A stretch of 27,235 bases of DNA, taken from the NCBI RefSeq assembly GCF_003334385.1, contig NZ_QOWN01000058.1; one strand, written 5' to 3'. The DNA comes from Escherichia coli (GTDB lineage Bacteria > Pseudomonadota > Gammaproteobacteria > Enterobacterales > Enterobacteriaceae). Shown here piece by piece: positions 26,546-27,141 of this stretch; position 1 is the first letter of the stretch; the number at the start of each line of letters is the position of its first letter. The position numbers were made by a program, and so were the translations under genes. The notes beneath the pieces are model-generated. The model ran no database searches. It saw nothing but the letters and a program-made list of their open reading frames with translations, and was not told the origin of the DNA.

Positions 26546-26988
26546 TTATGTTGGCGTTTTCTATTCAGTATAGAAGTCGGAGCGGCTGGGCGAGATGCGG
26601 AAGTTCTGGAATGTTTCTTTTTTTTGGTGATGGTGAACTGATGGTGCCTGAAGCAATTTGGCTACTTTTGCAATGTGACAAGTTATGGCAGTGCTGACTG
26701 GTGGCGAAGAATTTTGACGATTGAGTCATGCAGAAAAAAACGGGTTCAGCTTCAGTTGATTAAATGAGGAGTGAGAAGTCCGAAACAGGACTCACTGTAT
26801 AAATAAACAGCTATTTTGTTGAGGAAGGGTAAGATAACGGCGGGTGCCTGAAGCTTTCCGGTTTCAGGTTTACTCTGAGGTCTGGAAAGATGAAGCCCCA
26901 GGAGATATTTCTATCAACCCTGGGGCTGCCACTCCAAACCCGAACAATTTGGATGGTAGTCCCTTCTTCGCATGGAGGCAATATAAAC

Positions 26989-27141
26989 ATGCTGACGAAA
27001 TATGCCCTTGCGGCAGTCATAGTGCTGTGTTTAACGGTGCTGGGATTTACGCTTCTGGTCGGAGACTCGCTGTGTGAGTTTACGGTGAAGGAACGTAATA
27101 TTGAGTTTAAGGCTGTTCTCGCTTACGAACCGAAGAAGTAG
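26989..27141 (+). CDS. hokE: Hok-family type I toxin HokE, 50 aa
   Basis: [50 protein letters not shown]: single transmembrane helix and conserved Hok C-terminus; GGAGG 8 nt before the ATG. The ORF track shows it as the C-terminal part of a longer in-frame ORF. Confidence 0.85.

Follow-up and report, generated by a model that had tools for sequence, protein, structure and literature searches.

An IS186-interrupted allele as the probable identity of a hokE/sokE locus in an Escherichia coli genome

The stretch of Escherichia coli DNA analyzed here (27,235 nucleotides (nt) of contig NZ_QOWN01000058.1, assembly GCF_003334385.1; referred to as the window) carries, close to its right end, a small toxin gene behind a structured RNA leader. 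This locus very probably is the chromosomal hokE/sokE type I toxin–antitoxin system of E. coli, in the allelic form in which the insertion sequence (IS) IS186 interrupts the 3′ untranslated region, as in strain K-12. The window DNA is E. coli chromosome that is K-12-like but not MG1655 (99.1–99.2 % identity over most of the window), and positions 26000–27235 are identical to MG1655, in which the matching stretch is annotated as ybdK, sokE (b4835), hokE (b4415) and IS186B. The gene, its antisense RNA, the IS186 insertion and control by LexA are all already catalogued for E. coli K-12, and the locus belongs, as a known and annotated member, to a well-studied family; its disrupted allele is shared by roughly one in three complete E. 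coli genomes (the same hokE–IS186 junction was found in 1874 of 5426). By orthology, it would be filed under hok/sok as a secondarily disrupted member. The features on which the argument rests are given below in window coordinates, with Shine-Dalgarno sequences abbreviated as SD and open reading frames as ORF.

26795–26810, no strand assigned: predicted LexA (SOS) box CTGTATAAATAAACAG, over the inferred −35 region of the hokE promoter (pattern match)
26830–26835, plus: −10 element TAAGAT of a weak putative hokE promoter (read from the sequence)
26839–26849, plus: tac element GGCGGGUGCCU, 5′ end of the hokE mRNA (position 1 of the Rfam model aligns at 26842)
26844–27077, plus: ORF of the initial annotation, GTG start, 77 amino acids (aa), frame +1 to hokE; not considered a gene as delimited (ORF list)
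26854–26889, plus: conserved leader hairpin CUUUCCGG...UCUGGAAAG, predicted to sequester GAGG 26877–26880 (folds)
26877–26892, plus: GAGG, 9 nt and ATG 26890, candidate mokE start (the sole SD-preceded start in the leader)
26886–26945, minus: sokE antisense RNA of 60 nt with single-stranded 5′ tail, long hairpin and CUUCAUCUUU tail (MG1655 b4835, by identity)
26894–26927, plus: hairpin pairing ucb (GCCCC, 26895–26899) with the equivalent of the mok SD (GGGG, 26922–26925), the sense copy of the SokE hairpin (folds)
26928–26957, plus: target hairpin, with a loop (26939–26947) complementary to the first SokE bases (fold)
26953–26981, minus: putative sokE promoter, −35 TTGCCT 26981–26976, 17-nt spacer, −10 TACCAT 26958–26953 (read from the sequence)
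26962–26978, plus: 5-bp hairpin CCUUC/GGAGG predicted to sequester the hokE SD (GGAGG, 26974–26978; single and alignment folds)
26989–27141, plus: hokE coding sequence for a 50-aa Hok/Gef membrane toxin (ORF list, MG1655 annotation, Pfam)
27149–27163, plus: remnant of the post-stop hairpin GCGGGG-AGTAAT-CCCCGC with the IS186 target GGGG-N6-CCCC (comparison with IS-free alleles)
27152–27163, plus: duplicated IS186 target GGGAGTAATCCC, 12 bp, which flanks the element in MG1655
27160–27235, plus: left end of IS186 (IS186B/insL2 in MG1655), leaving the window; transposase ORF from 27218 (annotation)

The toxin gene, its leader and the antisense RNA

The HokE product matches the Pfam family HOK_GEF (PF01848) over model positions 1–42 of 42 with an E value of 9.2e-8, and matches to the NCBIfam HokA and Hok family models score below the curated cut-offs; the RefSeq gene name is HokE. 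The gene was compared among 13 distinct hokE copies from nine other genomes and the window, with the MG1655 copy identical to that of the window. In these copies, 13 of the 153 nt of the coding sequence are variable and none of them carries a premature stop. A search of HokE against viral contigs returned a single near-identical match and was uninformative. Over-expression of the MG1655 HokE coding sequence is toxic (bioRxiv 10.1101/2025.08.07.668861). Codon 46 of hokE in the window is TAC followed by G (Tyr46, 27124–27127); in the mRNA of hokE, as in those of hokB, hokC and hokD, A-to-I editing by TadA recodes this tyrosine to cysteine according to a preprint (bioRxiv 10.1101/2025.08.07.668861).

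Upstream of the toxin gene, positions 26842–26997 match the Rfam family RF01794 over its full model length with 84.4 bits (gathering score 59) and an E value of 1e-17, and the leader folds better than shuffled sequences (z −2.9). The type I toxin call of the initial annotation is thereby borne out by Pfam, Rfam and the MG1655 annotation together, and so is its description of a 50-aa HokE behind a long structured leader (150 nt) by the Rfam match and the fold. Four hairpins make up the leader fold in the window (26854–26889, 26894–26927, 26928–26957 and 26962–26978). Although the leader is 97 % identical overall among the 13 copies, these yield 10 distinct leader sequences, across which 99 % of the cells remain paired, with 2 compensatory pairs. 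All 15 of the 15 pairs of the first hairpin are kept in the 10 sequences, and compensatory changes occur across paralogs; the target hairpin shows two compensatory pairs among alleles; and the hairpin at the hokE SD keeps 5/5 pairs in the hokE copies, its pairing being backed across paralogs. The hokE SD is thus predicted by modeling to be sequestered, as membership in hok/sok requires. When RNAalifold was applied to the leaders alone, tac paired with the GCCCC of ucb.

RF01794 also matches the hok-sense strand in 11 other hok loci, including hokB and hokC, whose antisense genes sokB and sokC have their annotation on the other strand. Because the family matches this strand, the match in the window is evidence for a hok leader and silent on antisense orientation. 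The family is named 'sok antitoxin', yet its model follows the sense orientation of the hok mRNA leader, and its matches in 26842–26997 and in loci L002–L014 mark the hok strand.

The antisense orientation is instead indicated by features of sokE itself. The RNA transferred from MG1655 folds with −24.6 kcal/mol (z −2.8) and leaves a 5′ single-stranded tail of 11–14 nt. In the sokE promoter, 7 nt separate the −10 element from +1, where G at 26945 coincides with the annotated 5′ end; this promoter is unchanged in the 13 hokE copies, and TTGCCT-17-TACCAT is listed for the same spacer in a genomic SELEX of the RpoD holoenzyme (PMC3946193). SokE lies opposite leader positions ~45–104, which may be set beside 43–99 for annotated sokB and 44–102 for sokC. 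Judged from these sequence features, sokE appears to be a cis-encoded antisense gene with its own promoter, a 5′ tail and a hairpin. The initial annotation had expected such an RNA around 26840–26930 and considered its ends impossible to place from the sequence alone. Its existence is supported by annotation, promoter and Sok-like fold, but the location has to be corrected: placed at 26886–26945 on the minus strand, with a recognizable promoter, SokE leaves the 5′ 45 nt of the leader uncovered and reaches 15 nt nearer to hokE than had been guessed.

Sequence variation in the leader is concentrated where SokE would be recognized. Eleven of the 17 variable columns fall within the 25 nt of 26926–26950, a segment complementary to the 5′ tail of SokE, in which the loop of the target hairpin lies. 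Six variants of it occur, and tandem copies inside one genome differ here. The clustering gives a Fisher p of 1.5e-6, which has to be read with the region having been picked post hoc and the sequences being related. The pattern looks like antisense recognition specificity that is diverging. The tandem copies are those of the whole hokE module (LexA box, leader, sokE, hokE, fbi and terminator; ~503 bp), which is repeated between ybdK and entD in several lineages (O157:H7 and other strains; L003 at 2936–3591, L015, L016 and L017). In strain 22726, the second tandem hokE copy bears an IS186 insertion. A scan with the exact 14-nt pattern GATATTTCTATCAA against 298 Gb of contigs gave mostly chance matches, the pattern being AT-rich; the useful ones among the matches listed were two loci of E. 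albertii (L109 and L110).

Several points weigh against the hokE/sokE reading of the locus and its mechanism. Chromosomal hok loci reportedly do not mediate post-segregational killing, as attributed to Pedersen and Gerdes (1999). The canonical mok of the R1 model is not present in hokE, and translational coupling may differ from that of R1. The 5′ and 3′ ends of sokE were transferred from annotation, and no experiment mapping them was found in the literature searched, though sokE appears in published lists of small RNAs. A consensus scan for promoters and terminators over 26540–27235 found nothing above its thresholds; this null says little, because the sokE promoter matches 8/12 positions and the SokE terminator is atypical. 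Finally, deletion of hokE together with five other SOS toxins had no persistence phenotype (PMC8406316).

The mok start and the drifting upstream frames

The mok AUG of plasmid R1 hok/sok precedes hok by 58 nt and is covered by the 5′ part of Sok; there, it is translation of mok up to the hok initiation region that matters, not the peptide (PMC9841398). Among the chromosomal loci annotated in MG1655, mokB is out of frame with hokB, and mokC and mokA are in frame with hokC and hokA. At the canonical mok position (leader nt ~89–94, 26930–26935), ATG, GTG and TTG are absent in every hokE copy. The leader alignment shows an SD-preceded ATG or TTG at this position in Klebsiella oxytoca, K. michiganensis, K. 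electrica, hokB and hokC, in place of which hokE has CTC (26932–26934); a start is likewise missing from hokX and from two Citrobacter relatives. Furthermore, the equivalent of the mok SD in hokE reads GGGG, not GAGG. A start that the R1 model treats as essential is therefore missing in hokE, hokX and the Citrobacter relatives.

The initial annotation had proposed that a GTG frame (26844–27077) overlaps hokE in the manner of mok. This frame exists and is out of frame with hokE (offset 145 mod 3 = 1), ending 86 nt inside the toxin gene, and its relative frame of +1 is the same as that of R1 mok. Its 3′ part shows homology to the leader frame of Klebsiella Mok (NNSDVSLFFAGRQ). The spacing from SD to ATG of hokE is 4 nt longer than in Klebsiella, and because of these extra nucleotides the in-frame Mok frame of Klebsiella corresponds to frame +1 in hokE. 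From the alignment, a frame of the Klebsiella mok type hence persists in hokE with its start codon lost. The proposed start fits a mok gene poorly, however. GTG 26844 stands at about nt 3–6 of the inferred transcript, inside tac, where it is base-paired in every modeled conformation; no SD precedes it, and the nearest end of the SokE duplex is 42 nt away. Moreover, natural 1-nt indels in the leader give rise to three leader lengths:

Window-length leader: 6/13 copies (4 K-12-type, 2 others); GTG ORF of 77 aa, out of frame; ATG ORF of 83 aa, in frame with hokE
Leader with one extra C: 4/13 copies; GTG ORF of 38 aa, stop at −32; ATG ORF of 62 aa, out of frame, ending at +86
Leader one nt shorter: 3/13 copies; GTG ORF of 98 aa, in frame; ATG ORF of 22 aa, stop at −32

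Since these lengths shift the frames among the 13 copies, neither long upstream frame is conserved. The GTG ORF in particular stands in another frame relative to hokE in 7/13 copies, stopping at −32 in four of them and running in frame with hok in three. In the extra-C alleles, it is the ORF from the upstream ATG that shares the stop codon of the GTG frame. Searches of Pfam and NCBIfam with the product of the GTG frame, the upstream peptides and the antisense ORFs gave no match, a result that does not discriminate, as MokB is also unmatched. That the GTG frame represents mokE, i. e. a translated overlapping frame that is needed for hokE expression and controlled by SokE, is very improbable, and mokE as 26844–27077 is not supported by the sequence comparison.

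Another candidate gene is the minus-strand ORF opposite the leader (26811–27020, 69 aa in the window; 89 aa in some strains). The Prokaryotic Genome Annotation Pipeline (PGAP) calls it a 'hypothetical protein', giving it as intact in several genomes, and it is intact (89 aa) in the extra-C alleles. In K-12-type alleles, including sequences identical to the window, it is a frameshifted pseudogene, and most of the alleles sampled carry a frameshift or an interruption in it. It also lies wholly over conserved RNA elements, which explain the conservation of its sequence. A real protein gene is extremely improbable here, and the antisense 'hypothetical protein' most likely is an annotation artefact over these elements.

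A different candidate for mokE translation is ATG 26890, which is preceded by GAGG at 9 nt and opens an 83-aa ORF (26890–27141) that in the window is in frame with hokE, whose ATG at 26989 is its codon 34. Ribosomes starting here could melt the leader hairpins and the SD hairpin, and if only their transit matters, the frame may drift. The R1 precedent described above is consistent with this, since it is translation up to the hok initiation region and not the peptide that counts (PMC9841398). The combination of GAGG, 9 nt and ATG lies inside the SokE duplex and is kept not only in all 13 distinct copies from E. coli but also in hokE of E. albertii and in hokX, a diverged paralog. In addition, mokC and mokA are annotated in frame with their hok genes in MG1655, and gene callers often give the 83-aa form. 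On the other hand, conservation of ATG 26890 inside Escherichia carries little weight, given an overall leader identity of 97 %. Relatives from C. rodentium and C. amalonaticus have AAG in place of ATG 26890 and no leader ORF altogether. Furthermore, the GAGG is buried in a conserved hairpin, and the bases that follow ATG 26890 are those of ucb, paired in both modeled conformations. A relocated mok start at ATG 26890 is possible and may be put forward tentatively.

About equally likely is that hokE does without mok, its start having been lost and not replaced; this is a plausible reading, if still short of probable. HokE synthesis would then need only the opening of the SD hairpin, and SokE would act via decay triggered by the duplex. 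Together with the IS186 insertion, such a hokE may be essentially silent in the window strain. The start codon at the canonical position is missing in the 13 distinct copies, in hokX and in Citrobacter, while the Klebsiella relatives, hokB and hokC have one; GGGG has taken the place of GAGG, and the frames drift freely. The absence of a deletion phenotype (PMC8406316) would also agree with a silent locus. Against simple decay, however, the HokE coding sequence is intact, conserved and toxic when expressed (bioRxiv 10.1101/2025.08.07.668861), conservation extends to the whole RNA architecture and to the LexA box, and several lineages carry the module in tandem duplicate.

If ATG 26890 is used, hokE would show by natural example that ribosome transit through the leader is all that matters, not the Mok frame, and some alleles would make an extended HokE of 83 aa. 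If it is unused, hokE would be a mok-independent, LexA-gated variant of hok. On the level of phylogeny, it could be that the canonical mok start was lost in the Escherichia/Citrobacter branch of the HokE/HokX clade and kept in Klebsiella, with an upstream SD and ATG in Escherichia hokE and hokX whose frame drifts; this scenario remains doubtful as a whole. The alternative SD and ATG of Escherichia hokE and hokX are located ~40 nt upstream of the canonical position, in the part covered by the 3′ tail of Sok. The missing start in the hokE, hokX and Citrobacter branch and the frame drift of the remaining upstream ORF may be the mildly new aspects of this locus.

LexA control, 5′–3′ closure and IS186

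Two features had been overlooked in the initial annotation, namely control by LexA and disruption by IS186. The pattern CTGT-N8-ACAG has a single exact match in the window, at 26795–26810. This box is invariant across all aligned hokE copies and present in each hokE locus scanned (L002, both copies of L003 and L110 of E. albertii), and C. amalonaticus, where the locus has other genomic surroundings, carries a similar, slightly different box at the same distance. The hokB, hokC and hokX loci lack the box, as do the Klebsiella relatives and the plasmid loci. The TAAGAT element downstream of the box is arranged like the TATAAT-AGCGGC-GGGTGC in front of hokC. With an operator over its putative promoter, hokE is predicted to be a member of the LexA (SOS) regulon, the box being a predicted binding site. 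This agrees with the literature, which counts hokE among the LexA-regulated genes for which an SOS box is known (PMC6590174) and names it as a LexA-regulated or SOS-induced toxin (PMC6590174, PMC2814082, PMC8406316).

The elements tac, fbi, ucb, dcb and mok are taken from the model of R1 (PMC9841398). In hokE alleles free of IS186, the stop codon is followed by the hairpin GCGGGG-AGTAAT-CCCCGC, then by AGGCACCUGC and by a terminator hairpin, and the tac bases pair with AGGCACCUGC about 350 nt downstream. The minimum free energy structure of the 410-nt IS-free hokE mRNA accordingly closes 5′ GCGGGUGCCU on 3′ AGGCACCUGC (z −6.7). Such a closure was sought in hokE alleles, hokB, srnB-like, pndA-like and Klebsiella plasmid hok loci, hokX, as well as in chromosomal relatives from C. 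rodentium, C. amalonaticus and Klebsiella. For the first 15 nt at the 5′ end, the best partner in most of the IS-free loci is located at nt 336–380 (−17 to −25 kcal/mol). K. oxytoca and K. michiganensis deviate with a best partner at nt 443–444, which probably is not a real fbi. The pairing is accompanied by covariation (GUGCC/GGCAC, GUGUC/GACAC and GCGCU/AGCGC, as well as a change from U-A to G-C at position 11 in C. rodentium). In the models, the closure of IS-free hokE is the classical tac/fbi closure known from R1.

In the window, IS186 (IS4 family) stands 22 nt past the hokE stop, homology to the IS-free strains ends at 27163, and the first 72–76 nt of the element lie inside the window. 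The fbi of MG1655 is found at 609390–609399, which is 1704 nt from tac and ~1.3 kb past the window end. Because IS186 has moved fbi ~1.3 kb downstream and outside the window, the fold-back that the initial annotation asked for is not demonstrable within it: closure between tac and fbi was found in IS-free alleles of the same gene and not in the window. When the disrupted transcript was folded into IS186, 5′–3′ closure was absent and the 5′ end paired locally with ucb, which is a low-confidence prediction. A search for a substitute fbi within IS186 revealed chance 7-mers only.

Insertion at this site is recurrent. Strain TUM18780 carries IS186 at the same spot of hokE in the opposite orientation, and in K-12 hokC the element sits in the homologous hairpin. 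IS186 has consequently entered the GGGG-N6-CCCC hairpin just past the stop at least three times (hokE, hokE inverted and K-12 hokC), and this hairpin of hok loci is therefore an insertion hot spot of IS186.

The mechanism that can be proposed for hokE/sokE is drawn by analogy with R1 hok/sok. LexA would repress the weak hokE promoter. SokE would be made constitutively and, with its 5′ tail, make first contact with the loop 26939–26947, before forming a 60-bp duplex over ATG 26890 and the region equivalent to the mok SD. This duplex could bar ribosomes from the leader and direct decay by RNase III, and the sequestered hokE SD would stay closed. In IS-free alleles, pairing of the 5′ tac (26839–26849) with the 3′ fbi (AGGCACCUGC) would keep the full-length mRNA inert. 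Transcripts of the window allele would instead read into IS186 and could not close, because IS186 displaced fbi and the terminator by ~1.3 kb; the stable pool of inert mRNA is expected to be lost.

The tac region is accompanied by an imperfect 19-nt direct repeat, with AACTGATGGTGCCTGAAGC at 26636–26654 and AACGGCGGGTGCCTGAAGC at 26836–26854, exactly 200 nt apart. The flanks of the upstream repeat show no further similarity to hok, and O157 has a deletion there. The repeat may be a vestige of an older copy.

Related systems and the rest of the window

Compared with hok/sok of R1, the paradigm of type I systems, hokE shares the Hok/Gef toxin, a homologous structured leader, ucb and a sequestered hok SD. 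The 5′–3′ closure via tac and fbi is common to R1 and the IS-free hokE alleles. Both systems also have a cis-antisense RNA of ~60 nt with a 5′ tail and a hairpin, and the −35 box of the antisense promoter overlaps the region of the hok SD. Unlike plasmid R1, hokE is chromosomal and without the canonical mok start, which in R1 is out of frame with hok; it has an upstream LexA box, and in the window its fbi and terminator are parted from the gene by IS186.

The chromosomal paralog hokC (gef)/sokC of K-12 resembles hokE in carrying IS186 within the homologous GGGG-N6-CCC(C) hairpin just past the stop and in that SokC covers the same leader positions as SokE. In contrast to hokE, hokC has a canonical mok start with SD and ATG 19 codons upstream and in frame (MokC), and a LexA box is absent. 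The closest Hok paralog of HokE that was found is encoded by hokX/sokX in the cysH–cas3 spacer (HokX MLTKYALVAIIVLCCTVLGF...). Like hokE, hokX lacks the canonical mok start and has GAGG and ATG just 5′ of ucb; unlike in hokE, its upstream ORF of 18–23 codons stops before the hok SD, and there is no LexA box. Intact hokX is found in O157:H7 (L138) and many other strains. In K-12 (L139), the coding sequence of hokX has been deleted right after its ATG, leaving the leader and part of sokX. A more distant likeness exists to tisB/istR-1, in which a LexA-repressed mRNA for a small membrane toxin is likewise kept in check by a constitutive small RNA; hokE and this system appear in the same lists (PMC8406316, PMC2814082). 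The toxin family and the RNA architecture of tisB/istR-1 are unrelated to those of hokE, and IstR-1 is encoded divergently and not as a full cis-antisense RNA.

Elsewhere in the window, positions 342–2300 and 3060–3728 on the minus strand replace the end that the cryptic prophage DLP12 has in MG1655 (tfaD and the ybcY pseudogene). From translations read by eye, the ORFs of this region include one of 296 aa that resembles manganese catalase, two of 168 aa that resemble YciE/YciF, as well as an intact 222-aa ybcY-like ORF. At the opposite end from hokE, positions 1–182 match the Rfam family IS009 (RF02111) with 200.7 bits, the match being cut by the window start.

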